A stretch of DNA of 64,000 bases from Epithemia pelagica (lineage: Eukaryota; Protista; Bacillariophyta): assembly GCA_946965045.2 (NCBI GenBank), contig OX337235.1:2294001-2358000 (forward strand), read 5' to 3'. Position numbers and translations under genes: made by a program. The notes under the pieces were generated by a model. The model did not search any database. It worked only from the letters and a program-made list of their open reading frames with translations, and had not been told where the DNA came from. This document shows positions 2,679-47,576 of this stretch, piece by piece (position 1 is the stretch's first letter; every line of letters starts with the position of its first letter).

Positions 2679-2977
2679 ATTTAACGTCATTTATCGAAAG
2701 AGTCATTCGTTGGTGTTGATCAGGGTTAGGATGAATGTTCATTGTTCATGGAAGCAGCAGACCCAGGATAGACCTTTATAGCAACAAACTCCTACTCCTA
2801 GAGGAGTTAGAGGTGTTGAACTACAAGAGAATTAGGAGTAGTTTACGAGAGGTGTAGCTTTTTCCACCGTTCGAAGCACGTTCCTTCCTCCAGTCCAACC
2901 AAGAGTCCCCCAGAAATTGTTCGATATGGGGATGTCAACAAAGATGCCGACCTGAACAGGGAGAAAAGACGTCGAAC

Positions 2978-5389
2978 ATGGCTCCTAACAATGCCTTGGC
3001 CGAAAGAAGGAAAGCGGAAACACAAAAGAATCAAGGTAGCACGACAGTGTTGGCCGCTGGCACCGTCGAAGCCCGTGGTACTGGATCGAGTAGTAGTAGT
3101 CATGTGATCGAGGCCGAAATCCAACAATTTTTGGACGGACAGGGAAAGCTTTCAGCGTATGCAGAAACCAGAGCTTTCTTCACCCTTTGGACGTTCCTCA
3201 CGCGGCTTCCTGGTCCTACGTGGACAGACCACCATCCTGGATTTCTTATGCGTGGAGCTGCCTACTTCCCACTGGCTGGATTTCTCATTGGAATGTTTGT
3301 TAGTGTCTTTGCAGATTTCGCTCACGTTGTTCTGGGGCTGCCTTTGATCGTCTCTGTCCTAATGAGTACAGCGGCGAGCTTTTGGGTCACGGGATGCTTC
3401 CACGAAGATGGATTGGCGGATGCGTCGGATGGGATTGGTGGAGGATGGTCGCGAAATCAAATTTTGACCATCATGACAGATACCCGTCTTGGCACCTATG
3501 GTTGTGCAGTATTGCTTTTTTATGTGATGGCCAAAGTTCATTTACTAGCATCTCAAGGTCCATCGTCTTGGGGAGGAATGGTTGGCACTAGTCACGGTGT
3601 CGGCCCGGCCTTACTTGTTACACATGCGGCCGCTCGCAGCGTCGCACCTTATATGATTCGGACCCGTGATTATGTGGATGAAACAGGGCCAAAGTACAAG
3701 TTTTACAAGTTTATGGTACATGCGAAGCATTTGGTGTCTTGGCATCGTGTTGGATTTGCCGTCGGGACCACAGTACTTTTGGGGTTTATTCTGTATGGAC
3801 CCGTTGTAACCCTGTTCCTTTTCTTGTCTCTCTGGTGCTTGGCGCACGCATCTGGAGCCTATGGAGAGTACTTGCTAGGAGGTGTCATGGGAGACTTTTT
3901 GGGTGCAACAATATGTGTTGCTGAGCTTACGTGCTTGACGGTGTTGCGTGTTTCTACTTCTTTGAATCATCCTGGAATCGAGACTTTCATGGGTACACTC
4001 AAGGACTTTACCTCTTCAGCTTCTTGGGGCAACTTTTCGGATCCTTCTCATCCTCTGGGAGTCTTGGCAAGATTTGTGTTGGTGATCACGTTGACGGTGC
4101 TGTGGTCAAGAAATGTCGGTCACCCGAGCGTTGTGGTGCGAGAGACTGTCGCCAAGGCTCAGGACAAAGCATCTGACGAATCAGATGATGGAGAAGTGCG
4201 TGTGGCATTCCAAGAAGAAAGTCAATCGACTCCGGAATCAAAGACATCAGCGAGGTTGAAAGTAAAAGAAGCTCTCTCTCTATCCGGTTCGACTTTTTCG
4301 GACAGATACGAAGCCGCCCGTTCATATTTGGATGGTCTGGCCAAACCAATGGGCTCATTAGGAACTCTTGAAGACTGGGCAGCCAAAGTAGCAGCCCTGC
4401 AGGGTACTACGAAAATTCAAGTCGACCCTGTTGCCTGCCTCATTTTCGCCGCAGATCATGGCGCTGCGAAATCTGTCGAGGATGGTGGATCTGCATGCTC
4501 GGCCTACCCACAGGCAGTGACACAAAGCATCATCAAAGGACTGGAAATGGGAATTGCTGGAGCATCCGCCATATCGAAAGCGAACTCAGTTCGTCTTTTT
4601 GTCGTAGATGTTGGAGTCTGCGGTGCCACCTACAATGGTCCGATTGTACAATCGGCAAAGTCAAAATTGGTTGGTGGTACACGAAACATATGCGTGGAGC
4701 CAGCCATGACAGTGGAAGAGACCAAACAATGTCTAAAAAGTGGGCGTCTCGAATTGGCGAATGTAGTGGCCAAAGGTCAAGCTAAAGTGGTAGTTCTCGG
4801 CGAAGTGGGGATTGGCAACACAACTGCATCCTCTGCTCTGGCTGCACTTTTGACATCTGCCAAGGTGGACAAGCTTTGTGGAGGAGGAGCCACGACAAGT
4901 CGCACTGTGACTAAGGAGAGTGTGAAAAAGAAGATTCAGCTGGTTCGTCGTGCTGTTGAAATGCACTCCACTTCCTGGCTGAGCAAGAAACTGACTGCTT
5001 TGGACGCACTCACTCTCGTTGGTGGAGCTGAAATTGCGGCTTTGGTGGGGGCATTTTTGGAGTGCTCGGATCGCCAGATCCCAGTGTTGTGTGATGGCTT
5101 TATTGTCTCGACGGCTGCAATGGTCGCGGTCATGATGGAGCCCAAAGTCTGTCGAGTTATCTTGCTTTCTTCAACCAGCACGGAACCAGGTTACCAGGTG
5201 GTTGTCGAAAAAATTATGGAAATATCGAAAGTCAACAATATTCCAATGTCGCCACCAGCGCTATCCATGGGTCTTCGAATGGGTGAGGCTACGGCTGGCT
5301 TAGTGGCGGTCCCCTTGCTGCGAAGTGCTGCCGCAATGATAAAGGAAATGGGAACAATTGAAGACATTCTAACGGAAGGTCCGAAGTGA
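2978..5389 (+). CDS. cobS-cobT: Fusion of cobalamin synthase CobS (N-terminal) and nicotinate-nucleotide:DMB phosphoribosyltransferase CobT (C-terminal)
   Basis: CobS motifs HEDGLADASDG, IMTDTRLGTYG and GGVMGDFLGA (~3160-3950). CobT motifs LAKPMGSLG, FAADHG, GEVGIGNTT, GGAEIAALVG, DGFI and LRMGEATA (~4300-5380). One uninterrupted 803-aa ORF. Confidence 0.93.
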   Translation: MAPNNALAERRKAETQKNQGSTTVLAAGTVEARGTGSSSSSHVIEAEIQQFLDGQGKLSAYAETRAFFTLWTFLTRLPGPTWTDHHPGFLMRGAAYFPLAGFLIGMFVSVFADFAHVVLGLPLIVSVLMSTAASFWVTGCFHEDGLADASDGIGGGWSRNQILTIMTDTRLGTYGCAVLLFYVMAKVHLLASQGPSSWGGMVGTSHGVGPALLVTHAAARSVAPYMIRTRDYVDETGPKYKFYKFMVHAKHLVSWHRVGFAVGTTVLLGFILYGPVVTLFLFLSLWCLAHASGAYGEYLLGGVMGDFLGATICVAELTCLTVLRVSTSLNHPGIETFMGTLKDFTSSASWGNFSDPSHPLGVLARFVLVITLTVLWSRNVGHPSVVVRETVAKAQDKASDESDDGEVRVAFQEESQSTPESKTSARLKVKEALSLSGSTFSDRYEAARSYLDGLAKPMGSLGTLEDWAAKVAALQGTTKIQVDPVACLIFAADHGAAKSVEDGGSACSAYPQAVTQSIIKGLEMGIAGASAISKANSVRLFVVDVGVCGATYNGPIVQSAKSKLVGGTRNICVEPAMTVEETKQCLKSGRLELANVVAKGQAKVVVLGEVGIGNTTASSALAALLTSAKVDKLCGGGATTSRTVTKESVKKKIQLVRRAVEMHSTSWLSKKLTALDALTLVGGAEIAALVGAFLECSDRQIPVLCDGFIVSTAAMVAVMMEPKVCRVILLSSTSTEPGYQVVVEKIMEISKVNNIPMSPPALSMGLRMGEATAGLVAVPLLRSAAAMIKEMGTIEDILTEGPK

Positions 5390-26357: not shown

Positions 26358-27123
26358 TAGTAGAACTCTCACCGAAAATCATCGGTTAGGTTTGGCACCT
26401 CATCGGTTAGTCGAGTCCCGTGGCTTCAAACATCACCTACATCACCTACATCCACACTACATACCTAGCTTCGCGCTAGCTCAACATATATTTCGGTCGC
26501 ATATACCAAAAAGTGAGAACAGATTGACGAACGTGCTATCAAGAATCAACTTTGGTCTTGATATCCCATCAACGGACGATCATCCGTTGAACATCCGAGC
26601 CTGACCTATGCCGTAAGCATGCGCGCCCAAATTCGTCAAGACGCGCGCAAGAGCTATCCGAGCGTGGCGACCATATATCCGACCCAACGGTCTAAGTACA
26701 CAAGGCACGAATCACGATCACGCGAGACCATATCATCGTTCCCACTATTTCAAGATTGCAAACAAGGACGCGCCAACAAAACTACATATACCAACTTTAG
26801 CCAAGAATCGTTGAGGCTGTATATGATATACAAGCACATATACATGTTATATACCTCACATACATCAACTCCAACCATTCCAGTCCTATCACCGCCAAGA
26901 ACCTATTTCACACGATCAACAACAAGAATGGAAACCTCACACACCAAACCTAGTAGTAAGCTCACAATCATTAACATTACCATATCATCACGTCTTCAGT
27001 GTCCTGACTATCCCTACGATAGAGCCCTTGGGTTTCCTTTGTTCTCTGACCCGTGGAGAACTTTGGTATCAGTTGGTAATCGATTGTGGCTCTTCTAGAG
27101 CGTGTATTGATGAATCTCTACTA
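26358..27123 (+). repeat. 5' LTR of element A (TAGTAGA...TCTACTA)
   Basis: Matches 33353-34118; I found two A/G differences. Confidence 0.95.
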
Positions 27124-27138
27124 GATTAACAGTCTCAC
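27124..27138 (+). promoter_or_regulatory. Candidate primer-binding site complementary to the tRNA-Asn(GUU) anticodon arm
   Basis: GATTAACAGTCTCAC; reverse complement G-TGAGA-CTGTTAA-TC; no TGG after the LTR. Confidence 0.65.
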
Positions 27139-27516
27139 CGCTTATTTCCCTGCAGTTGCAATTGAAACCTTACTTACCCATCAACACCCGTTACAGATTG
27201 AGCTACCACAACAACAAGAGTTAGAGGACAAAGCTACTCAACCCATCAACAGGGCCAGCCTGGCTAAGGCTAGGGTCACCAACCCTTTCCTATTCCAAGA
27301 CCTCAAGCTGCACCAGGACTCCGTACAACTACCTTCCCAATACTCATCCAACGAGTGAACCACTTTTGTTGAGGACTACTACGAGTACGACGAAGAAGCC
27401 GCCTTCTGTTACTGAATCTCCGGTTCAACTCGATCACCGCAACGAGTCTGGAAGTGACCAAGAATAAGTAACTTTAAGTAGTTTTCACACCAAACCGGAG
27501 ACAAAACCAAGTTCCG

Positions 27517-27620
27517 CACATCCGGGTTACCTTTTGGACATCACAACACACATCCGGGTACTTCATACGTGGCACACACGTGGCACATCCGGGTTCAGAA
27601 GGCACACCACACATCCGGGT
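27517..27620 (+). repeat. Four copies of CACATCCGGGT in the leader of element A
   Basis: Copies start at 27517, 27549, 27584 and 27610. Confidence 0.85.
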
Positions 27621-27698
27621 TACAAAACAAGACTAAAGTTTTCGACTAAGACATCACAGGACACATATCAACATATCTTATCACAAAGTCAAGCAATC

Positions 27699-30600
27699 AT
27701 GGAACCAACTACACCGACCCCACCAGAGTTCAACCCCAATCAAAGTATATCTGATCAAGAAGTCTTTGATCATATTACTCAGGTGTTGTTCAACTTTTCC
27801 AAGGAAAGGGTCGATGTACTCGTGAAATGGATGCACCATCATGCTTTTGATGATATCCTTAGTATCATTGAACATATGGCGATTGACCCTGAGAAGAACA
27901 TGGATAGTATGACAAAATACAAGTCAGGAAAACAAATGCACGACCTACATGTCAATACAAGCCAGCAGATCAAGTTGCTTGCCCATTGGTTCCGACAAAC
28001 AAGTATCGATATTCAGGGTATACCTTCCAAGGCAACCTGGATGAATCTGACCAAGGCAGAATTTGATCTATGGAGGATAAACACTGACTTTCGCTCTGGA
28101 AGCCCTATCAATGACCCAGTATCACCTATGAAATCTCCATCCCATTCGACGTCACCAAAATCGTTTAGTACTACTTCTGCTGCATCACAGTCCCAACTGG
28201 ACCTAACCGCATTCAAGAAGGGAACCAAGCGTGACGCTATGGCATATGAAACATTCAAGGATGAACGATACTACGACACGTTCTGGAGGACTTTCAAGAC
28301 CACAGCAAAAGCCCAAGGTTTATCTAATGTTCTTGACTTCCGATACAAGCCGCCAACGAATGATACGTATGCAACAGAACTTTTCCAAGAGCAACAAATC
28401 TTCCTATACTCCGTCCTTGTGCGCATCATCCAGACTGATCAAGGAAGAGCTTATGTTTGCGAACATGAACATGATGAAGACGCACGAGCAGTGTTACAGA
28501 AGCTTCACACATTGCATACGAAGTCAGACTTAGCAAAACGAGAGGTCTTACGATTAACCAATTACATCTCCAACCTTCACCTCGATGATACATGGCGTGG
28601 ATCATCACGTCAATTCTTGCTTCATTTCCAAGACAAACTACGTTTACTCGATAACCTTGTTGATCTCTCTGATCGCATACCTGATCACACCAGGATGACG
28701 TTTCTTATGCAAGCTGTCGAGAAGGTACCTGACCTTCGCAGAGTTAAAATCTTGGACAACGTCGTCAACACGAAGTCTGGAGCAAAGTCTTTATGTTATC
28801 GGTCGTACTTCTCCATTTTGATGGATGCAGCATATGACCATGATCAAGTCACGCAATCTTCTGCAACTGGTCGTCGTCGTAGTGTCAAGCAACACGAGCA
28901 ACACGAAACACAACATGATATTGAGGGATCCCTTCAGGAAGACGATGCATATCAGATAAACAATACCAATGTCCAAGATGATAACACGGCATCTCCAAAA
29001 GCCAGTCTTCCTCGTGACCTATGGTTTAAACTTCCTGAGGATGCTCGCAAGATGATTGTTGAGTATAACAAGAACGTGCAAGCTTCTACTCCGAGTCCAA
29101 GAAAGGTACAGCAACACTCCCTTGACATTGATCCTGACCCTGGTCAAGATGTTTTCGATGACCTGGACAACCCCACATATTCGCAGGATGATTCCGATCC
29201 AGCCACCCATCTCATCCATCAAGCAATGACGTCAACCGACCTCAATCACCCAGCTTCTGATTTGTCTAATGTTCTATCCAATGCCGCATCCAAGACGAGT
29301 AAGAAAGTTAGTTTCAAACAGAATGAGCACAAGCAGAAGGTCCACATGACTCAATATATGTTCTCTCGAAAGTCGACTTATACTGGGAATCAACTCATTG
29401 ATCGTGGTGCCAATGGTGGTTTAGCCGGAGCTGATATGCGTATCCTTTCCAAGACAGGTCGTAACATCACGATTGTGGGAATCGACAACCATGAACTTAC
29501 TGGTCTCCCCATTGTCACTTGTGCTGCCAAGTTTGAAACTAATGATGGACCAATCGTTGGCATCTTCAACGAATATGCATACTATGGAAAAGGACAGTCT
29601 ATACATGCACCTTGTCAATTGGAACATTATGGGCTATCTGTGGATGAACGTTCTGTCAAGGTGGATGGAAAGCAACGTATCACTACCCTTGATGGACGTG
29701 CTTTACCTCTATGTATCAAGGATGGACTTGCCTTTATCCACTCATTAGGTATCCCTTCTGATGATGACATGGACCGATTGCCGCAAATCATCTTTACTTC
29801 GCCATCTACTTGGGACCCCTCTGTTCTTGACCATACTCATTCAGATCCACAGCATGATGCTTCTACTACATGGTATCAGGTTGTGACCGATGGCAGTATG
29901 GCACGTTATCCATATGACACGTATGGGGAGTACACTGATCATGTTGTCTGCAATCTCAATCTTCTCCTTGACCTTCCTTATCACCACGGACCCGACAACA
30001 CCACATATTTCTCTATCTATGCTGATGCTAATGGTGAAGACCCAACCCTTCAACATGCATCTGTCCATTGTCGTTATGTGGAAGAACATGATTGGAAACA
30101 ATTTTGTCCCTTCTTTGGTTGGCAATCCAAGGAAGTTATTGCCGATACTTTCAAGCATACTACACGACATGCTAATGTGATTTTTGACTGTGACACTCTC
30201 AAGAAACATTTCAAGGCACGCAACCCTATCCTGAATCTACCACGTCGTCATGAACCCGTTGCTACCGATTCGATCTTTTCTGATACACCTGCTGTTGATC
30301 ATGGTGGAAAGGTGGCTCAAATTTTTGTTGGCCGCGATACTCTTGTCACTGATATTTACGGTATCAAGTCTACCAAGCAATTTGTGAACACTCTTCAAGA
30401 CAATATACGCATGCGAGGTGTTATGGAGACACTCATTAGTGATGGGGGTTCATCTCTCATTTCCCATAAGGTTAAGGATATCCTTCGCACCTTGCTCATC
30501 GGGGAGTATCGCTCTGAACCATACCACCAGCATCAGAACAAAGCCGAGAATCGTTATCAGACCGTTAAACGAATGACGAACGCTATCATGAATGCAACTG

Positions 30601-33355
30601 GATGCCCGGCCAATGTTTGGTTACTTTGCCTTGAATATGTCTGTGACTTATTGAATCATTCTTCTTCACATGCACACTCTGGACGTACTCCTATTGAGGC
30701 TCTCACCGGTCACCCTCCCGACATTTCGCACCTCCTGTTCTTTCCCTTCTGGGATGAAGTCTACTATCGTGTTGACCCCTCCGAACCGTCGTCTGGTCCC
30801 TACCCTTCTTCGACCGATGAGAAACTTGGCCATTGGGTTGGTTGTGCTCACAACGTTGGTGATGCTTTTACATGGAAGATTTTGTCTGCTGACAACCATA
30901 TCCTCTACCGTTCCGCTGTTCGCCGTGTCGCTTCCACTACACCCAACCTTCGTGTGGATCGACCTTCAGGGGAGACGTCTCCGAAAGATGACACTGATAA
31001 GCAGGCTGACACTGTCTTCATTCGCAGTAAAAGTGAAGATCCATCCAAACCAATGCCTACAATTGATTACGAAGACATGATAGGACGCACTTTCCTATGC
31101 GACACTGAAGAAAATGGGGAGCGTCATCGAGCACGCGTTGTCAAACGAGTTGTAGATCTTAATGAAGAATCACTCAAGCAAGAAGAACGCATCAAGTACA
31201 TCTACCGCAAGACAAATTCTGACGTTGATGAAATGATCTCTTATAACCAGTTGATGGAGTATATTAAGAGGGACAATCAAACGCAGACCTCGGGAGATAA
31301 TTTGTTCCGTTTCAGGGATGTTATTGCACATCAAGGCCCACTGTCTTCAACCGACCCGGATTATAAGGGGAGTAAGTATAACTTGCTTGTGGATTGGGAA
31401 ACTGGGGAGACAACCTATGAACCACTCTCCCTTATTGCCAACGACAACCCAATCACCGTTGCCATATATGGAAAGAAGCATGGGCTCCTCAACGAACCAG
31501 GATGGAAACACCTGAAACGCTACGTCAAGACGAGTAAACGCCTGATACGTGCTGCAAAACAATCAAGGATCAAACAAGTACGTCAATCAGTCAAGTATAA
31601 GTTTGGATTCCAAGTCCCTCGAGATTACGCCGAGGCTGTCAATCTTGACAAACAAAATGGTACCACAAGGTGGCAAGACGCAACTGAATTGGAACTGTCT
31701 CAGATACAATCATATGAGACATTCAAGGACCATGGGAAGGCCATCTTCACAAATGGCAAGGTATCAAATGCACCTGAGGGATATCAAAAGATTCGAGTGC
31801 ATCTCGTTTTTGATGTGAAACATGATGGTAGGCACAAGGCACGACTTGTTGCAGATGGACACTTGACGAAGGAACCTGTGGAAACGATCTACTCTGGAGT
31901 TGTTTCTATTTGCAACCTACGAATTGCTTTATTCCTTGGATCTCTGAACGATCTAGAAGTATGGGGAGCAGACATTGGGAATGCGTATCTTGAAGCATTG
32001 ACTGGGGAGAAGTTATATATTGTGGCAGGACCCGAGTTCAAGGAGCTAGAAGGTCACATCCTCATCATCTACAAGGCCCTCTATGGTCTCAAATCTTCAG
32101 GCGCACGATGGCATGATGTCCTTTTTGACGTCCTCACCGATATGGGTTTCTCACCAAGCAAGGCAGATCCTGACATTGGGATGAGAAAAGCGCCTGGGGA
32201 GGATTGCTACGAATACATCGCCGTATATGTGGATGACTTAGCCATCATAGCTACTGACCCTGGAAACATTTGCAAAGTCTTCAAGGAAAAGTACAACTTC
32301 AAGCTTAAGGGAGATGGACCTATTGACTATCACCTGGGATGCCGGTACACCAAGGACCCTGACGGAACCCTAGTCTCTGATCCACGCCGATACATTAGCA
32401 AAATGATGGACACCTTTGAACGTACCTTCAAAGAGAAACCCAAGAAGGCTAAAACCCCTCTCATTGCTGGTGATCACCCGGAATTGGACGACACCGAACT
32501 CCTTGATGAAGAAGGTACACAGCACTTCCAGACCTTGATTGGACAGCTTCAGTGGGTGATTACAATTGGTCGCTTTGATGTTTTTACTGCTACGATGACC
32601 CTTTCCAGGTTCCGCGCAGCTCCAAGACAGGGACATTTCAACAGAGCTAAACGCATCTATGGATACCTTTTCAATCTTTCTGATGGTGCAATCAGATTCC
32701 GAATCAGAGAGCCCGATTTCTCAAGCATTCCAAGTCAAGACTTTGATTGGAGTCGTACGGTCTATTCAGATGCCAAGGAATACATCCCTCATGATTGCCC
32801 AGAACCACTTGGACGATATGTGACGACAACGCACTATGTTGATGCTAACCTTATGCACGACATGATCAAAGGAAAGTCTGTAACAGCCATCCTGCATCTC
32901 TTGAATGGGACACCAATTGATTGGTACAGCAAACGACAGAGCACTGTGGAAACGGCAACATATGGATCAGAATTTGTGGCAGCAAGGACAGCAGTCGACC
33001 AAATCACTGAATTACGGCATTCACTTCGTTACACCTTGGAGTACCAATCAGGGATTGCAGTTATCTGTTTGGAGACAATCGATCTGTGGTTGTTAACGCA
33101 ACAATGCCTCATTCTATCTTGTCCAAGAGACATCATCTCCTTTCATATCACCGGGTACGAGAAGCGATAGCAGCGCAATACGTTGCATTCTATTGGAAGG
33201 ATGGGAAGACCAACCCTGCCGACATCCTCAGCAAGCATTGGAAGTTTGCAACTATTTGGCCTCTACTCAAGCCCCTATTGTTTTGGAGAGGAGAAGTTCA
33301 AGATCTCTACGAATCCAGCGATGACAAGGCTGAACCAACGAGCTGTGGGGAGTAG
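27699..33355 (+). pseudogene. Gag-Pol polyprotein of element A, frameshifted in RNase H
   Basis: Single ORF from MEPTT; an extra AC at 33033-33034 shifts the frame; the corrected frame reads RYLGVPIRDCSYLFGDN...NPADILSKHW and stops at TAG 33353-33355. Confidence 0.88.
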
Positions 33356-34118
33356 TAGAACTCTCACCGAAAATCATCGGTTAGGTTTGGCACCTCATCG
33401 GTTAGTCGAGTCCCGTGGCTTCAAACATCACCTACATCACCTACATCCACACTACATACCTAGCTTCGCGCTAGCTCAACATATATTTCGGTCGCATATA
33501 CCAAAAAGTGAGAACAGATTGACGAACGTGCTATCAAGAATCAACTTTGGTCTTGATATCCCATCAACGGACGATCATCCGTTGAACATCCGAGCCTGAC
33601 CTATGCCGTAAGCATGCGCGCCCAAATTCGTCAAGACGCGCGCAAGAGCTATCCGAGCGTGGCGACCATATATCCGACCCAACGGTCTAAGTACACAAGG
33701 CACGAATCACGATCACGCGAGACCATATCATCGTTCCCACTATTTCAAGATTGCAAACAAGGACGCGCCAACAAAACTACATATACCAACTTTAGCCAAG
33801 AATCGTTGAGGCTGTATATGATATACAAGCACATATACATGTTATATACCTCACATACATCAACTCCAACCATTCCAGTCCTGTCACCGCCAAGAACCTA
33901 TTTCACACGATCGACAACAAGAATGGAAACCTCACACACCAAACCTAGTAGTAAGCTCACAATCATTAACATTACCATATCATCACGTCTTCAGTGTCCT
34001 GACTATCCCTACGATAGAGCCCTTGGGTTTCCTTTGTTCTCTGACCCGTGGAGAACTTTGGTATCAGTTGGTAATCGATTGTGGCTCTTCTAGAGCGTGT
34101 ATTGATGAATCTCTACTA
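33353..34118 (+). repeat. 3' LTR of element A
   Basis: Preceded by a short purine tract (TGTGGGGAG) and followed by TSD ATGGT. Confidence 0.95.
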
Positions 34119-39442: not shown

Positions 39443-39827
39443 GAAACAAAGTCTTTATCATGGACCCAAAGATTGTGTTTGCATTCAAAGACGCAGCGAT
39501 AGTGAATGGTGATTGGTGATGGCCAGAATAATGGGGACCGATCCTCACACATAAAAAGGGGGGTGCTGTCTTTTTGAAGGGTGTATTGCATGGTTGGCAG
39601 GCGCACAAGACACGCCAGTCGGCAAATTTATAGCGACAAAGAGGCAACCACATTTTCATTTTCAACCCTCGTGCCTGTCGCCAATGGTGAACGAACCGCA
39701 AGAGCGATCATAGAGACCGTGTTATCCTAACAGCATTGCCAGTATTCAGACGCAACGATAAACATCAACCTACTACCGTTGGTTGCAAAGATGAAGCTGA
39801 GACGTCAACAAGATCGAGAAAGCCGTT

Positions 39828-40300
39828 TGTTCAAAAGATCTACGTAATCGTCCGGGAATGGACCCGGGACTCCCATTCGGAAGTAGGAGATCGGCCGAAG
39901 AAAAGATGAGCATCATTCATCTTGAGAATTTGTCCCTCATAGGACAAGAACGACGGGCATCCAAACAAGATGCTCACGAACGATACAACAAAGACAACGC
40001 GTCATCGTCATGAGCGTTTAGAAATGACAAACCGGCACAATCCAACTGATACAGGCCAAAAGAATAACTGGCATTGCCTAAAAGGAACAACGGCCAAGAA
40101 CGGGCAGGAGACACCCATTTAGGAAAACAAGATCGATGGACGATTGAGCTATCGCCCAACCATCGACTCAACGCATCAAAAGGAAAGACCTCAACGCCTT
40201 AGGCTACAACACGCTAGATTAACCAAATAAACTCACAACTTAACTTCGTTTACACGGGTTGAGCTCTTTCTCTTTTACCTACGGTAGGGAGAAAACAACA
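39828..40300 (+). repeat. 5' LTR of element B
   Basis: TGTT...AACA, matches 45688-46160. Confidence 0.96.
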
Positions 40301-40315
40301 CGCTTCCTCTGCGCT
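40301..40315 (+). promoter_or_regulatory. Candidate primer-binding site complementary to the initiator tRNA-Met D-arm
   Basis: CGCTTCCTCTGCGCT; reverse complement AGCGCAGAGGAAGCG, compared with eukaryotic tRNAi RGCGCAGNGGAAGCG. Confidence 0.7.
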
Positions 40316-40350
40316 GTTAACAGCTTACACGTTGTCACTCAAGAATCACC

Positions 40351-41604
40351 ATGGCCGCGAACTTTGCTCTATCTCCAGCCCACGCCAACGCCAATCAAGT
40401 GATCAACTTCACGACGGCAGGAGGCGCCAAGTTTTATAAGCAAGCGACACGCGGATTGTATGATGGTAGTGACCTTTACGACCTCAACGCAGAAGGATTG
40501 AAAACGTTCCTCGATACCTTGCAGGATCGGATCGTGGAACAGAACTGGACGTCTATCTTTTCGATTCCGGAAGCAATCGCTGCTCCAGCCGCAAACCTTC
40601 GTAACTTGACGTCCGAATACGGTCGCGTCTCTCTTCAACAAGTCCGAGCCTTCGTCGACCATTACAATGGGCAGAATCGTCAGACGCAGAACTCATACAT
40701 GGCCTACACATGTATCATGGCTTCACTTACCGAAGACGCAAAGGCACAAGTGAATATTCGACGCGAAGAGTTTACGATCAATGGCCGCGGAGCTGGACCT
40801 CTCCTTCTCAAAGTTATCGTCTCGCTTGCTCACGTGGACACGGAAGCCACGGTTATGGTACTCCGCCAACGTCTGGCCGACTTGCACGTGTACATTATGG
40901 ACATCAACGCGGACATCGCCAAGTTCAATTTCTATGTGGACGAAACCCTTCGAGCCCTCAACGCGCGCGGCGAGCAAACTCTGGACCTCCTTCCCAACCT
41001 TTTCAAGGCGTACGAAAATGTGAACGACGATAACTTTCTGGAGTTTATCCGTCGCAAGAAGAACGCATATGAAGAAGGTGACAATCCGGGATTGACCCCG
41101 CGCCAACTTATGACATTGGCACGCACCAAGTATCAGACCTTGATCGAGCAAAAGAAATGGCAGACGCTATCGGCACGTGACCAGAAACTGATCGCTCTCG
41201 AAGCATCCGTGAACAAACTCAAGGACTCGAAACGTAAGGCAGTGCAGACGGACCAAAAGAAACAGTCAGCAAAAGTGAAGACGGACAAGACTACGGACAC
41301 CGACAAGGGATGGCTTACGATTGGTCCCAAGAGCGGGCAACCGGAGGTTAAAGAAGTTAACGGCAAGACTTGGTATTGGTGCAAGTGGCACCAGAAGTGG
41401 TCAACTAACAAGAATCACACGTCTGCGACATGCAACGGACGTGGTCTTACCGGAGACAAGAAACGCGCTTATGACGAAGCTCACGGGACTGGTGACGGTG
41501 GAAGTCAAGCTGATCCATCTACCCCAGGACTCCGCCTAGCAAGTGCCTTAGCTAACCTGTCTCCAGACGACGAAGAAGATGACGATGACAGCAACGACGA
41601 GTGA
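40351..41604 (+). CDS. gag: Gag of element B
   Basis: 417 aa; atypical knuckle C-x2-H-x8-H-x4-C (CKWHQKWSTNKNHTSATC); acidic tail. Confidence 0.9.
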   Translation: MAANFALSPAHANANQVINFTTAGGAKFYKQATRGLYDGSDLYDLNAEGLKTFLDTLQDRIVEQNWTSIFSIPEAIAAPAANLRNLTSEYGRVSLQQVRAFVDHYNGQNRQTQNSYMAYTCIMASLTEDAKAQVNIRREEFTINGRGAGPLLLKVIVSLAHVDTEATVMVLRQRLADLHVYIMDINADIAKFNFYVDETLRALNARGEQTLDLLPNLFKAYENVNDDNFLEFIRRKKNAYEEGDNPGLTPRQLMTLARTKYQTLIEQKKWQTLSARDQKLIALEASVNKLKDSKRKAVQTDQKKQSAKVKTDKTTDTDKGWLTIGPKSGQPEVKEVNGKTWYWCKWHQKWSTNKNHTSATCNGRGLTGDKKRAYDEAHGTGDGGSQADPSTPGLRLASALANLSPDDEEDDDDSNDE

Positions 41605-41631
41605 CAACCAAACCCGGGGTGGCTCCCCGGG
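41602..41631 (+). other. Candidate stop-codon readthrough signal: UGA-CAA-CCA plus a 7-bp hairpin
   Basis: TGA CAA CCA AA CCCGGGG TGGCT CCCCGGG; the frame continues without a stop into pol. Confidence 0.8.
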
Positions 41632-44600
41632 CTGCTTCAAGACATCAAGCAGCTCATATACACAGTATTAGTGACGATCGTGTTATCAGGTTATACTATA
41701 CTGTGTTTCGAGCTATGGTCCCCTAGACGAACTACCATCGACTACTGGCTAAAGACCGCAAGCAACGCATGCGACCAGATGGCGACTACTATGGCGACCG
41801 CAATCAAGACGAAGAAGAAAAGACGACTCGACCATGGTAAACTAAGACGACGGAGGAAGATGACCGGACTCCTAAGAGCATTATGCATGGCGACGATTCT
41901 TACTTCAACAACTGGATTCGTATCCAACAGAGCGGCCCATGACGTCGGATTCGATACCGACAGCCGCAAAGTACTCATCGACAACTGTGCCACTGCGTCC
42001 ATCACCAACGACATCAACGACTGTTGCACGAAACCAGTCAAGATTAAGCGACGAGTGAAAGGAGTGGCCGGGACGTTCCACCCAGACATTTACGAGACGA
42101 CAATACGATGGGATATCGAGGACGACGATGGGAAAATACATACAATCACGCTCCCCCGATCATTCTACATCCCATCAACGCCGACGCGACTCTTGTCTCC
42201 ACAACACTGGGCTCAAACCGCAAAAGACAACAAACCGGTACCGAGAGGGACTCGATGCACAACGTATGGTAACAGTATCGAACTCGTGTGGGGACAAGGA
42301 CACTTCAAACGAACAGTGCCGCTCAACAAGAAGGGATCAAACGTTGGAGAATTCACAACGGCCCCAGGCTTTACACGATACGAGACGTTCTGCAAGAAAG
42401 CGGGCACAACGATCGAACAAGAAGATAACAAACCACTGTTAGCTCACAACGCGAATCTCATCGAAGACGACGACGAGTCCATCATGGAACGATCTCCAGC
42501 AACGGTCGGAGAAGACGAATCGACAGACGACGAGAGTATTTTCCAAAACGACAATCTCGACGACGAGGAAAATGAGAAGTACTTTCCGAGTAGAGACGTA
42601 CCGATGACTACAGAATTTCTCATCGGTCCGCATGAAACGGTACACGTGATCCCCAACGAAGAAGAACGACTACCCGAGAGTCCAACGCTAGAGTTATTGA
42701 GGACTCACCACCGTATGGGACACCTCTCTATGGCTAAGATCCAATCAATGGCACGCCAGGATATACTCCCAAAACGACTGGCTAATTGCAAAATACCTGT
42801 TTGTACAGCATGCATGTACGGAAAGGCGACCAGACGCCCATGGAGAATCAAGGGTCATCGGGGTACATTGGACGTCATGACGTCACCAGGACAATGCGTA
42901 TCCGTGGATCAAATGATATCCAAGACTCCAGGGTATATAGCCCACTTACGAGGGACTCCAACACGGGACCGATATAAGGTGGCTACCATCTTTGTGGATC
43001 ACTATTCAGGTATAGGTTACGTTCACTTGCAGAGAACTACATCGGCAAAAGACACTATAGAAGCTAAAGATCGATTCGAAGCATGGGCCGATACGCATGG
43101 AGTTGCAATTCGTCATTACCATGCCGATAACGGTATCTTCGCTGACAACAAGTTCCGAGAAGCCATCCAAGCAAAAGGCCAACGCCTTACCTTCAGCGGG
43201 GTCAACGCACACTTCCAGAGCGGTATGGCCGAACGCCGCATTCGGGACCTACAAGAATCAGCACGAACCATGCTAATTCATGCACAGAGACGCTGGCCGT
43301 CCACCATAACGACGAACCTATGGCCCTACGCCATAAGATACGCCAACGACATGTTCAACGAAGCACCTATGAAGAAACAGAAAGACAAAACTCCAATGGA
43401 GTTATTCACTGGTTCAACAGTTCGGTTCAATACAAGACTAGCCCATACGTTCGGGTGTCCCGCTTACGTGCTTGACAACGATCTCCAGAGTGGAACACCT
43501 ATCCCGAAATGGTCAGAACGCGCTCGGGTTGGCATTTTCTTGGGATACTCTCCGCAACATTCTAGAACCATTGGGCTTATTCTATCACTATCATCCGGAT
43601 TGACGTCACCTCAGTTCCATGTGCAGTACGACGACGCTTTCGAAACACTAAGGGCGAGTTTCGGAGAAACCCCGCCAGTATCACAATGGCAGTACAAAGC
43701 AGGATTTACGAAAAGAGCCCCACGAATGAGGGAGACAGCAAGTGCACCTCAACTCGGAAGCACAGCGACGTCACCAAGGAGAACAAGAATCGCAAACGAC
43801 GTGCCGCATGACAACGATGTATCACATAATGAAGAACCGTCCTCGGACACTATGCATCCTACCTTAGATGAGGGAGAAACGCTACCCCAACATGAGGGAG
43901 CTAGGCGGTCGCAACGTACAACCCGTCGGACTCAGAGGTATCAGGACTATTTGACATCGCTACAAGACGAAAACGACGCCATTGCAGAATTAGCTATCAC
44001 TGCTAGACCAGCGATTACGGTCAAGACAGCCCAAGCAAACAGTAACCCAGATGTAATGTACTGGCATGAAGCTATGAAACAGAAAGATCGAGAAGAGTTC
44101 ATCAAAGCCGCTCAGAAAGAAGTACAAGATCATAGCGACAATGGACTATGGGAAGTTGTCAAAAGGAAGGACATTCCGAAAGGAGCATTGATTTCACGCG
44201 GAGTATGGAGCTGTGTCCGAAAACGAAGACTCAAAACAAGAGAAGTCTATAAATGGAAATCAAGACTAGCTTACGACAGGTCTATGCAAGAAAAGGGAGT
44301 CAACTACTGGGAAACATATGCCCCAGTTATTCAATGGCCGGTCGTACGTTTTGTCTTAACTATGGCACTTACTCAAGGATGGCATATCAAGCAAGTTGAT
44401 TATGTCCTGGCGTATACACAAGCAGTGGCGGAGACCGACATGTATATGGAGGCGCCGAGGAGCTTTACATTCGACACCAAAGGCAATCAACGAGCCGAGG
44501 ATTACGTGCTCAAAATCAAGCAAAATTATTACGGCCAGAAACAAGGAGCCCGAGTATGGAACCAACACTTGGTCAAGCGGCTGAAAGACGTGGGTTTCCA

Positions 44601-45660
44601 ACAGAGTGCATATGATGAATGCCTCTTTTACCACGGAAAGTGCGTGTACATTTTGTACACTGATGACTCTCTCTTGATGGGCCCAGACCAAGACGAGCTA
44701 AACAGGTTGATTGTCACAATGGAAGAAAGTGGATTGAAGATGACATACGAGGACGGAGTAAATGACTTTCTCGGAGTCAACGTCGAAAAGAAAGACGATG
44801 GGACCATCCATTTGACCCAACCACATTTGATCGACTCGATCCTCCACGACCTTCACTTGACCGACGAAACAACCAAGACAAAAGACACACCGGCACCCAC
44901 AACGGTACGACTAAGACAAGATCAGGACGGGAAGCCTTTTGACGGGCACTTCCATTATCGAGCCGCAATAGGAAAACTGAATTTTCTGGAAAAGAGCACT
45001 CGGCCAGATATCAGTTTCGCCGTTCACCAATGTGCAAGATTTTGTGAGAGTCCACGAGCAATACATGGCAGAGCAGTAAAACACATTGCACGTTACCTGG
45101 CTGCCACAAAGAAGAAGGGGATCATCCTCAACCCAGACGAGACACAGTCATTCCAAGTCTTCGCAGACGCCGACTTCGCAGGCAATTTCAATAGGCTGGA
45201 CCACCCGAATCGGGACATGGCACGATCAAGAACAGGGTTTGCAGTCTTCTATGCAGGTTGTCCTATCCTGTGGCAATCCAAATTGCAGTCAGAGATCGCA
45301 TTATCAACAACCGAAGCCGAGATTATAAGCCTCTCACATGCATTACGTACCGTGATCCCATTGATGTCCATCACTCGAGAGATGAAGGAATTGGGTTTCC
45401 CAGTACTATCCACAACGCCACAAGTCCACTGCAAGGCATTCGAAGATAACAGTGGCGCTATGGAATTAGCAACTGTACACAAGTATCGCCCTCGAACACG
45501 ATATCTCTGCACCAAGTTGTTCCACTTCAAATCTTTTGTGGAACGAAAGGAAATCGAGATCCTCCCATGCGCGACAGACGACCAGACGGCAGATATCTTC
45601 ACAAAATCTCTTAGCACAACGCCCTTCGAGAAACACCGCAAGAAACTTCAAGGATGGTAG
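41605..45660 (+). CDS. pol: Pol of element B, in frame with gag
   Basis: 41671-40351 = 1320, a multiple of 3; no stop between 41605 and 45657; all catalytic motifs present. Confidence 0.92.
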   Translation, partial: QPNPGWLPGLLQDIKQLIYTVLVTIVLSGYTILCFELWSPRRTTIDYWLKTASNACDQMATTMATAIKTKKKRRLDHGKLRRRRKMTGLLRALCMATILTSTTGFVSNRAAHDVGFDTDSRKVLIDNCATASITNDINDCCTKPVKIKRRVKGVAGTFHPDIYETTIRWDIEDDDGKIHTITLPRSFYIPSTPTRLLSPQHWAQTAKDNKPVPRGTRCTTYGNSIELVWGQGHFKRTVPLNKKGSNVGEFTTAPGFTRYETFCKKAGTTIEQEDNKPLLAHNANLIEDDDESIMERSPATVGEDESTDDESIFQNDNLDDEENEKYFPSRDVPMTTEFLIGPHETVHVIPNEEERLPESPTLELLRTHHRMGHLSMAKIQSMARQDILPKRLANCKIPVCTACMYGKATRRPWRIKGHRGTLDVMTSPGQCVSVDQMISKTPGYIAHLRGTPTRDRYKVATIFVDHYSGIGYVHLQRTTSAKDTIEAKDRFEAWADTHGVAIRHYHADNGIFADNKFREAIQAKGQRLTFSGVNAHFQSGMAERRIRDLQESARTMLIHAQRRWPSTITTNLWPYAIRYANDMFNEAPMKKQKDKTPMELFTGSTVRFNTRLAHTFGCPAYVLDNDLQSGTPIPKWSERARVGIFLGYSPQHSRTIGLILSLSSGLTSPQFHVQYDDAFETLRASFGETPPVSQWQYKAGFTKRAPRMRETASAPQLGSTATSPRRTRIANDVPHDNDVSHNEEPSSDTMHPTLDEGETLPQHEGARRSQRTTRRTQRYQDYLTSLQDENDAIAELAITARPAITVKTAQANSNPDVMYWHEAMKQKDREEFIKAAQKEVQDHSDNGLWEVVKRKDIPKGALISRGVWSCVRKRRLKTREVYKWKSRLAYDRSMQEKGVNYWETYAPVIQWPVVRFVLTMALTQGWHIKQVDYVLAYTQAVAETDMYMEAPRSFTFDTKGNQRAEDYVLKIKQNYYGQKQGARVWNQHLVKRLKDVGFQQSAYDECLFYHGKCVYILYTDDSLLMGPDQDELNRLIVTMEESGLKMTYEDGVNDFLGVNVEKKDDGTIHLTQPHLIDSILHDLHLTDETTKTKDTPAPTTVRLRQDQDGKPFDGHFHYRAAIGKLNFLEKSTRPDISFAVHQCARFCESPRAIHGRAVKHIARYLAATKKKGIILNPDETQSFQVFADADFAGNFNRLDHPNRDMARSRTGFAVFYAGCPILWQSKLQSEIALSTTEAEIISLSHALRTVIPLMSITREMKELGFPVLSTTPQVHCKAFEDNSGAMELATVHKYRPRTRYLCTKLFHFKSFVERKEIEILPCATDDQTADIFTKSLSTTPFEKHRKKLQGW

Positions 45661-45687
45661 CATCATCTTTCCCCGTCCGTGAGGGAG

Positions 45688-46160
45688 TGTTCAAAAGATC
45701 TACGTAATCGTCCGGGAATGGACCCGGGACTCCCATTCGGAAGTAGGAGATCGGCCGAAGAAAAGATGAGCATCATTCATCTTGAGAATTTGTCCCTCAT
45801 AGGACAAGAACGACGGGCATCCAAACAAGATGCTCACGAACGATACAACAAAGACAACGCGTCATCGTCATGAGCGTTTAGAAATGACAAACCGGCACAA
45901 TCCAACTGATACAGGCCAAAAGAATAACTGGCATTGCCTAAAAGGAACAACGGCCAAGAACGGGCAGGAGACACCCATTTAGGAAAACAAGATCGATGGA
46001 CGATTGAGCTATCGCCCAACCATCGACTCAACGCATCAAAAGGAAAGACCTCAACGCCTTAGGCTACAACACGCTAGATTAACCAAATAAACTCACAACT
46101 TAACTTCGTTTACACGGGTTGAGCTCTTTCTCTTTTACCTACGGTAGGGAGAAAACAACA
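45688..46160 (+). repeat. 3' LTR of element B
   Basis: Preceded by the PPT-like GAGGGAG. Confidence 0.96.
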
Positions 46161-47576
46161 GCCGTTCGATTCATGTTGGCTGGCTTGTTGCTACCGTCAT
46201 GCTTCTTTCGATATGGACCTGCTTGGAGTCAATGCTGATCAGTCCCATTGATCAAACTCTTCTCTTTGACAACCACCAAATTGATAAGCTCCATGAAGGG
46301 ATGGTCATCGATTCTTCCACCAATTCAAGTACTGTGTCATTACCTACAGCTCGAACTCTGGGCGTACAGGTTAGTCACATATGTAGAAATCTATCCAATG
46401 TTCGTCGAACTGGAAGCTTTTTCTACGACCACAATCTCCCTTACTGGTCAAGTCCCGTCTCTGTCGAGCCAAGACTTCATCTAAGCGCGCGAAGGTCGGA
46501 CCCCAATCTCCACAGACGTCTCCAAAGAGCCAATCTTGCCTTATTCCGTCAGCACTATGAGAAACACCGCCATCCTGATGGTGGTATAATCTTTGATATT
46601 GGAGCCAATCGGGGGATATATACATACTACGCAGCAACTCTGGGATGGGAGGTACATGCATTTGAAATTCAAGAACCAGTTTTCAAGCAACTTTCCCATG
46701 CTACACTGTTCAATCCAAAGGCTGTTTCGGATCGGGTTCACTTATATCCTATTGGAATATCAAGGACGATCTCTCGATCTGATCACGCAGCCACCGACGG
46801 TCTCGGATACCTCAATACAGCAAAGCATGCAGAGATAGAACTAGAGATGACACCAAGAGCGTCATCCAACAAAAAATCTATGGAAGAATCCGAAGTCGCA
46901 ATGTTTGAGGATTCTGGGTTGGGGAACGGGCCCACTTTGGTCATGCCTATGGACTGTCTGCTTTGGCATGTACCCGTTGATCTGGATAGAGTGGATTTGG
47001 TCAAGATTGATATTGAGGGTTTCGAAATTGCAGCTTTAAAAGGAGCGAAGCAGACATTATTTCGCAAACCACGTAGTGTCGGAGCTTTGCTGATAGAGGT
47101 TGGACCTATCCGGTGGGACCGTGCTGGAACGTCCCTTTCGGAGGGCATCTCCGAGCTGAGATCTTTGTTTCACATGTTTGCATATTCCCACGTTCTCTTG
47201 AGGAACTTTTCAGGTTGTCCTTACACGCTAGCCGAAAAACTTGTCCCCCGAAACGACAGCAGTCACACAAAATTCCAACTTGTAGCACAAGAGAGAATGT
47301 ATCGACTACAAAAAGACAATTGGCAACCTCTATTAGAGGAGCTGGATCGTACAAAAGCTGATTGCAATTTCTGGTACTCCAACCACCCATACGACGGCCA
47401 GCGAAGAGTACGTTGAAATTGAAAGTAGCAAGATACAAGAACGGTAGTTCGAAGTAGTGGAGACATATTTCATCATCATAGATGAGCGTGTTGAGAGCGG
47501 AATGCAGCGACTACAAAGCTTTCTCATCATACGAGCGTAATTGCGCGGAAGTGACCGAACGATGAGAAATCCCAGT

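Follow-up and report, generated by a model that had tools for sequence, protein, structure and literature searches.

A conserved site complementary to the D-arm of initiator tRNA-Met as the likely primer-binding site of a clade of diatom Ty1/copia retrotransposons

Which primer starts reverse transcription in an LTR retrotransposon whose 5' LTR is not followed by TGG? The question is raised by element B, which occupies positions 39828-46160 of the window, by which we mean the whole 64,000-nt stretch of Epithemia pelagica DNA analyzed here. A preliminary description of this DNA had noted the missing TGG, and the sequence from 40301 onward confirms it. In LTR elements the end of the primer fixes the right end of the LTR, and we examined this boundary and the letters beyond it in element B and in its relatives. 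The features of element B are as follows.

39822-39827, forward strand: left target-site duplication GCCGTT, 6 bp, with an identical hexamer at 46161-46166
39828-40300, forward strand: 5' LTR, 473 bp, TGTT...AACA, 100% identical to the 3' LTR
40296-40300, forward strand: LTR end CAACA, the integrase end; pairing with nt 25-29 of the Thalassiosira pseudonana initiator tRNA is possible and varies among relatives
40301-40314, forward strand: putative primer-binding site CGCTTCCTCTGCGC, complementary to nt 10-24 (D-arm) of initiator tRNA-Met
40313-40324, forward strand: 12-bp palindrome GCTGTTAACAGC, unconserved and treated as chance
40351-41604, forward strand: gag open reading frame, 417 aa, TGA stop, 70 homologs
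41605-45660, forward strand: pol frame, 1351 aa, uninterrupted from the first codon past the gag stop
45677-45687, forward strand: polypurine tract ending GAGGGAG, adjoining the 3' LTR, with the same tract in relatives
45688-46160, forward strand: 3' LTR, identical to the 5' LTR
46161-46166, forward strand: right target-site duplication, matching the left hexamer

The pol frame reads, in order, a hydrophobic and basic leader, a protease motif (aa 126), an integrase zinc finger (368-403), reverse transcriptase (857-1092) and an RNase H motif (1188), of which the protease-like and RNase H motifs are by-eye readings. Pfam places gag_pre-integrase at 365-407, followed by a copia-type RVT_2 domain at 857-1092. 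The named homologs come from Cylindrotheca closterium (Gag) and from Chaetoceros tenuissimus and Fistulifera solaris (RT-RNase H), all diatoms, so that the element itself, as distinct from any host gene, points to a probable diatom host. With direct TG..CA LTRs flanked by a duplication, this pol order, a copia-type reverse transcriptase and a polypurine tract at the 3' LTR, element B has the features of Ty1/copia and, judged by its sequence, is a young LTR retrotransposon of the diatom type. It resembles the CoDi elements as the main text of Maumus et al. (2009; PMC2806351) describes them, which are likewise diatom Ty1/copia elements of 5-8 kb with young LTR pairs and at most one stop or frameshift separating gag from pol. 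Its target duplication of 6 bp (39822-39827, 46161-46166) is of a length rare in plant LTR elements, at 0.4% in the figures of one plant survey (PMC6317226).

The last two letters of the 5' LTR are CA (40299-40300), and positions 40301-40315 read CGCTTCCTCTGCGCT, which had been described as a 15-nt complement of the initiator tRNA-Met D-arm. The first 14 nt are indeed complementary, letter for letter, to nt 10-24 (10-23 by physical count) in the initiator tRNA-Met of T. pseudonana; the tRNA sequence comes from supplementary file 5 of PMC4156623, which covers three algae, and serves here as a stand-in for the host's own tRNA. The 15th base does not belong to the match: T. pseudonana has G9, and among 54 non-redundant relatives, the set left after removal of near-duplicate flanks, column 15 is A in 23, T in 20, C in 6 and G in 5. 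Thus, the site is 14 nt long. In the three-species tRNA table of PMC4156623 the GGAAGCG core is held only by the two T. pseudonana Met-CAT (initiator) rows, and, with about 3000 tRNA positions to compare against, a 14-mer at a fixed place would match by accident with a probability of about 7e-6. The 14-mer occurs once in the 64,000-nt window, even with two mismatches permitted, and the window holds no tRNA genes. In a set of 317 tRNAs predicted from viral contigs, complementarity over all 14 letters is seen in 32 of the 67 Met(CAT) genes, which had been selected for the motif, and in one Pro gene, the others reaching at most 9 nt; a 17-mer search of viral contigs returned 15 loci, of which all but two tRNA genes, a Met and a Pro, were unrelated. 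The initiator tRNA-Met of F. cylindrus mismatches the site at 3 of 14 positions of its D-arm (PMC4156623, supplementary file 5), and on these sequences the D-arm is therefore not invariant among diatom initiators. This altered D-arm makes F. cylindrus a natural test case for covariation between tRNA and site.

Conservation of the site among copies had been set as a test of the D-arm reading. After 59 Gag proteins were aligned, loci were fetched by Gag alone; 244 stretches encoded a Gag relative, and the best 80 of these 244 gave 79 distinct loci whose Gag is 33-40% identical to that of element B. Within 1500 nt upstream of gag the 14-mer is exact in 63 of the 79 loci, has one mismatch in 5 and two mismatches in 2 (70/79; best 80 of 244), and control searches for it in the coding region and on the opposite strand of the same loci (best 80 of 244) gave 0/79 each. 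A lack of conservation, which would have spoken against the reading, was thus not seen in this best-80 sample. Of the nine misses, one (L150) is a one-base insertion variant and eight lack the site in the 2-708 nt present upstream of gag; close relatives of some site-less loci have leaders of 440-710 nt, and the upstream sequence of the site-less loci is likely truncated. Three further loci (L157, L158, L159) all carry the 14-mer, two exactly and one with two mismatches. These three are diatom-type copia contigs within prokaryote genome bins, where they are probably eukaryotic contamination.

The site is kept over considerable divergence. The 71 site carriers with a Gag of at least 300 aa have a median pairwise Gag identity of 37% and fall into 44 clusters at 60%; the Gag tree comprises 76 sequences, shorter ones being excluded. 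In the 54 non-redundant loci, 51-54 agree at every one of the 14 columns and the flanks diverge, and conservation begins and ends at recognizable points of the tRNA, nt 10 and nt 24. Contigs of four sequencing runs over 39700-41700 represent several subfamilies, with the site letters unchanged among the matches listed; the best of these runs are possibly the source sample and are not counted as support. A search for relatives of the element in viral contigs found none.

Two further patterns around the site were considered and set aside. The deviations in L107 and L158 (opposite a variable D-loop base) and the L150 insertion fit tRNA variants but are not counted as covariation, since mismatches fall at other columns too. 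An excess of A at +16 (41/54), which would pair with U8, was dropped because the +15 and +16 letters cluster on the Gag tree. The palindrome GCTGTTAACAGC, proposed earlier as a dimerisation signal, is real, but that role was not borne out, since it is unconserved and expected by chance: the window contains 20 perfect palindromes of at least 12 nt, this being one, and none of that length lies at +11..+60 of the site in the 54 relatives.

Could the likeness to a tRNA be fortuitous, the 14-mer being a protein-binding cis element? Covariation with host tRNA variants is not demonstrated, which leaves this reading some room, but the match probability given above, the conservation edges at nt 10 and nt 24 and the location where a primer-binding site belongs make it very improbable. 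Against priming by the tRNA stands that none of the 79 metagenome loci has a site changed to match F. cylindrus; across the window and 156 loci, no site matching the F. cylindrus D-arm was found, save look-alikes in two tRNA-bearing viral loci. Pairing with the D-arm might instead serve packaging or dimer formation as an auxiliary box, with priming from a tRNA 3' end, a self-primer or a hairpin. Ty1 and Ty3 have auxiliary D-arm tRNA contacts of this kind, and the reading gains from that precedent. We nevertheless consider it quite improbable, as the site lies flush with the LTR end, the place required of a primer's end, and no TGG is present. The best match of the site to a tRNA 3' end is 7 nt among the 317 viral-contig tRNAs (not host tRNAs), and the LTR offers the site no complement longer than 5 nt in element B, the longest in 36 relatives measuring 4-7 nt, so that neither 3'-end priming nor self-priming, the outcomes named beforehand as speaking against the D-arm, turned up. 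Element B contains no anticodon-loop complement anywhere, and anticodon or T-loop complements near the site occur in 0, 3 and 0 of the 54 loci; the same-sense controls gave 2, 0 and 1. From its place at the LTR end and the sequences of its relatives, we take the 14-mer to be a primer-binding site conserved across the clade, pairing with the initiator tRNA-Met D-arm, as the preliminary description had proposed; the pairing is exact against the T. pseudonana stand-in.

Where the primer ends can be read from the LTR edge. The bounds of the relatives' LTRs were taken from contigs that run through pol end, polypurine tract, LTR and site, no single locus having both LTRs. In element B the site adjoins the LTR CA just as the polypurine tract adjoins TG, and likewise in relatives with suitable contigs. 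Both LTR ends are readable in 38 relatives, of which 33 have TG..CA and 5 have TA..TA, the latter in at least two branches. The right dinucleotide tracks the left one, which indicates that the tRNA is not the template for the letters to the left of the site; on this sequence pattern the terminal CA is the integrase end and G26 lies outside the primer. The terminal A is invariant (54/54 relatives), which leaves room for a primer ending at U25, and the -3 and -4 letters are variable. A longer primer, ending at U25 or G26, would require that RNase H leave one or two ribonucleotides and that the last LTR letters be copied from the tRNA. U25-G26 can pair with the terminal CA, all five of the last LTR letters of element B (40296-40300) could pair with T. 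pseudonana nt 25-29, and agreement with the tRNA at the fourth letter is seen in 18/28 relatives when counted from the right end, against 10/28 from the left; together with the invariant A, these points favor it. However, templates from nt 26-28 would overwrite the TA..TA ends (5/38) and the variable -3 and -4 letters, and AACA-type ends are also explicable as an inverted terminal repeat, whose first three letters agree in 26-28 of 28 relatives, so that only U25 is left to this reading, which we hold to be improbable. Thus, the pairing of a following UG with the terminal CA, raised earlier, is possible on paper and is at odds with the TA..TA relatives, and of the suggested primer of about 24-26 nt the short 5' piece stands, with an end most likely at nt 24 (23 physical nt), at most at nt 25 and not at 26.

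The chemistry of the start allows another view of the same end. Bacterial retrons prime from the 2'-OH of an internal G and make branched RNA-DNA. By analogy, an uncut initiator tRNA could prime from the 2'-OH of G24, yielding a branched molecule; the last paired base is a G, sequence cannot separate a 3'-OH from a 2'-OH start, and the literature surveyed names no nuclease for a cut at 24/25. Nor is an abundant 5' fragment of Met tRNA marked in the tRNA-fragment table for P. tricornutum, where reads of 21-30 nt are not tabulated. Precedent points the other way, as a tRNA half is the reported primer of Drosophila copia (PMC10275265), initiation in hemiviruses is placed at the 3'-OH of nt 40 (PMC1181622) and 2'-OH priming by an LTR element was not met in the parts of the literature surveyed. 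We therefore regard the branched start as unlikely, though it keeps some weight.

In our preferred reading, minus-strand DNA of element B probably starts from a 23-nt 5' piece of initiator tRNA-Met ending at G24. Since the site is flush with the LTR CA, DNA synthesis would start at tRNA nt 24, and the analogy with copia and Ty5 makes a cut tRNA the simplest reading. The tRNA would be packaged, and 14 base pairs formed with the element RNA would open its D-stem; either before or after this annealing, a nuclease would cleave the tRNA at the G24/U25 junction to give a 3'-OH; and reverse transcriptase would copy U5-R, starting at the terminal A. Plus-strand strong-stop DNA would then copy the primer back to nt 10 and halt at a methylated purine 9, so that exactly 14 nt are regenerated in each cycle, as m1A58 does for 18-nt sites, and removal of the primer by RNase H would leave blunt TG..CA DNA. 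For the stop, m1G9 is reported in human initiator tRNA and blocks reverse transcriptase, according to PMC7293042, and the m1A58 stop sets retroviral primer-binding sites, according to PMC13191261; that position 9 is methylated in diatoms and acts as the plus-strand stop is assumed here from the human initiator tRNA. Diatom tRNA fragments are described as numerous, and as more so under stress (PMC4156623, PMC4247016). The P. tricornutum fragment table marks no fragment pattern for Met-CAT, although it pools initiator and elongator and covers lengths of 18-20 and 31-35 only, and so speaks neither for nor against a 23-nt piece.

How does this compare with known priming? The plant survey in PMC6317226 distinguishes three primer types of LTR elements, namely a whole tRNA, a half tRNA cut in the anticodon stem and a self-primer, and reports half-tRNA sites in plants only in Osser, Bryco and Gymco-II (1/2 tRNA-Met) and Bianca (1/2 tRNA-Ile). 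Cut-tRNA primers thus have precedent in Ty1/copia elements (PMC6317226, PMC1181622, PMC10886601). Like the hemiviruses with half-tRNA priming (Drosophila copia, 1731, yeast Ty5, Volvox Osser and plant elements), element B is Ty1/copia with a site directly past the LTR; its site is complementary, over 14-15 nt, to an inner stem-loop of initiator tRNA-Met, taking in the 5' strand of the stem, the loop and part of the 3' strand, and a primer truncated at its 3' end is implied. Unlike them, with primers described as running to nt 40 in the anticodon stem (PMC1181622), its pairing reaches no further than nt 24 in the D-stem, which would mean a piece of 23 nt rather than about 39 nt, and hence a primer shorter than the copia and Ty5 half-tRNAs, as had been suggested. 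The full-tRNA arrangement of pseudoviruses, a TGG site matching a tRNA 3' end, is absent; of the hemivirus features, the internal initiator-tRNA site at the LTR is present (with T. pseudonana as stand-in) and the nt-40 end is absent. Element B may best be called hemivirus-like, yet lacking the defining nt-40 end, and so a variant of internal tRNA priming. In the rust-fungus Copia and Helenus elements, internal tRNA priming was likewise inferred from sequence, but the passages of PMC10886601 concerned name the anticodon loops of tRNA-Tyr, Ile, Asp and iMet, not the D-arm. Fungal GalEa, with a conserved hairpin site (PMC5445492), and Tf1/TAR, with self-priming, are also described as having no TGG-type site after the LTR; element B differs from both in its tRNA-complementary site and in having no conserved hairpin or palindrome and no notable LTR complement.

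Neither the main text of the CoDi paper (PMC2806351), where primer-binding sites go undescribed, nor that of PMC2774666 mentions tRNA. We found no description of D-arm priming in the open-access literature searched, a scope outside which GyDB, Repbase, subscription papers and the supplements of PMC2806351 and PMC6317226 fall, and the motif itself appeared there in one unrelated fish paper. Thus, the D-arm site appears to be real and clade-wide, and its primer class is likely undescribed. With a D-arm site, kept by diatom elements throughout a large clade, the primer types would number four; such a site points to a tRNA-cutting step and gives a second handle on how internal tRNA primers arise, and under the model methylation at position 9 should help to end plus-strand synthesis. 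Annotation pipelines that seek 3'-end matches would miss such sites, and filters of this kind have been applied to diatom genomes (PMC7466962).

More tentatively, a pan-diatom copia clade may rely on a reverse-transcription primer of a fourth class, a 23-nt 5' piece that a dedicated G24/U25 cut in the D-stem releases from initiator tRNA-Met (or a branch at G24), with the methylated purine 9 as plus-strand stop. If so, the D-arm sequence of the host and the stress-regulated cleavage of its tRNA would decide how far the clade can spread, and hosts with an altered D-arm, such as F. cylindrus, would have escaped the clade or forced a change of site.

Element B is not the only copia element in the window. 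Element A has 766-bp LTRs at 26358-27123 and 33353-34118, with TA..TA ends and a 5-bp duplication. Its site GATTAACAGTCTC at 27124-27136 is, by eye, a 13-nt match to the anticodon arm of T. pseudonana tRNA-Asn(GTT) that ends at nt 40, and element A may thus use half-tRNA priming with a non-Met tRNA. Elements A and B, both copia, lie 6 kb apart, and their sites suggest a different internal tRNA primer for each. In the single 1900-aa frame of element A (27468-33170), similarity to the RNase H ending is lost shortly before the stop, suggesting that a frameshift occurred late in pol. Around 60380 a third copia remnant was considered but not confirmed. Elsewhere in the window, one frame at 2858-5389 contains both CobS and CobT-type phosphoribosyltransferase domains and is, by its domain content, a fused cobalamin-remodelling gene.

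The coding region of element B has a further peculiarity. Its gag and pol share one frame with a single stop between them (41602-41604), and pol is open directly past the gag stop in 43 of the 47 relatives with both visible (loci L078-L159). A looser count of gag stops in relatives gives TGA in 43 and TAG in 2 of 45, with C as the next base in 27. This arrangement suggests stop-codon readthrough, a strategy known from Candida Tca2. Between the gag stop and the protease motif (41605-41980, about 125 codons), a hydrophobic, membrane-helix-like stretch is followed by a basic one, and a hydrophobic window of similar strength follows the gag stop in 32 of 45 relatives.
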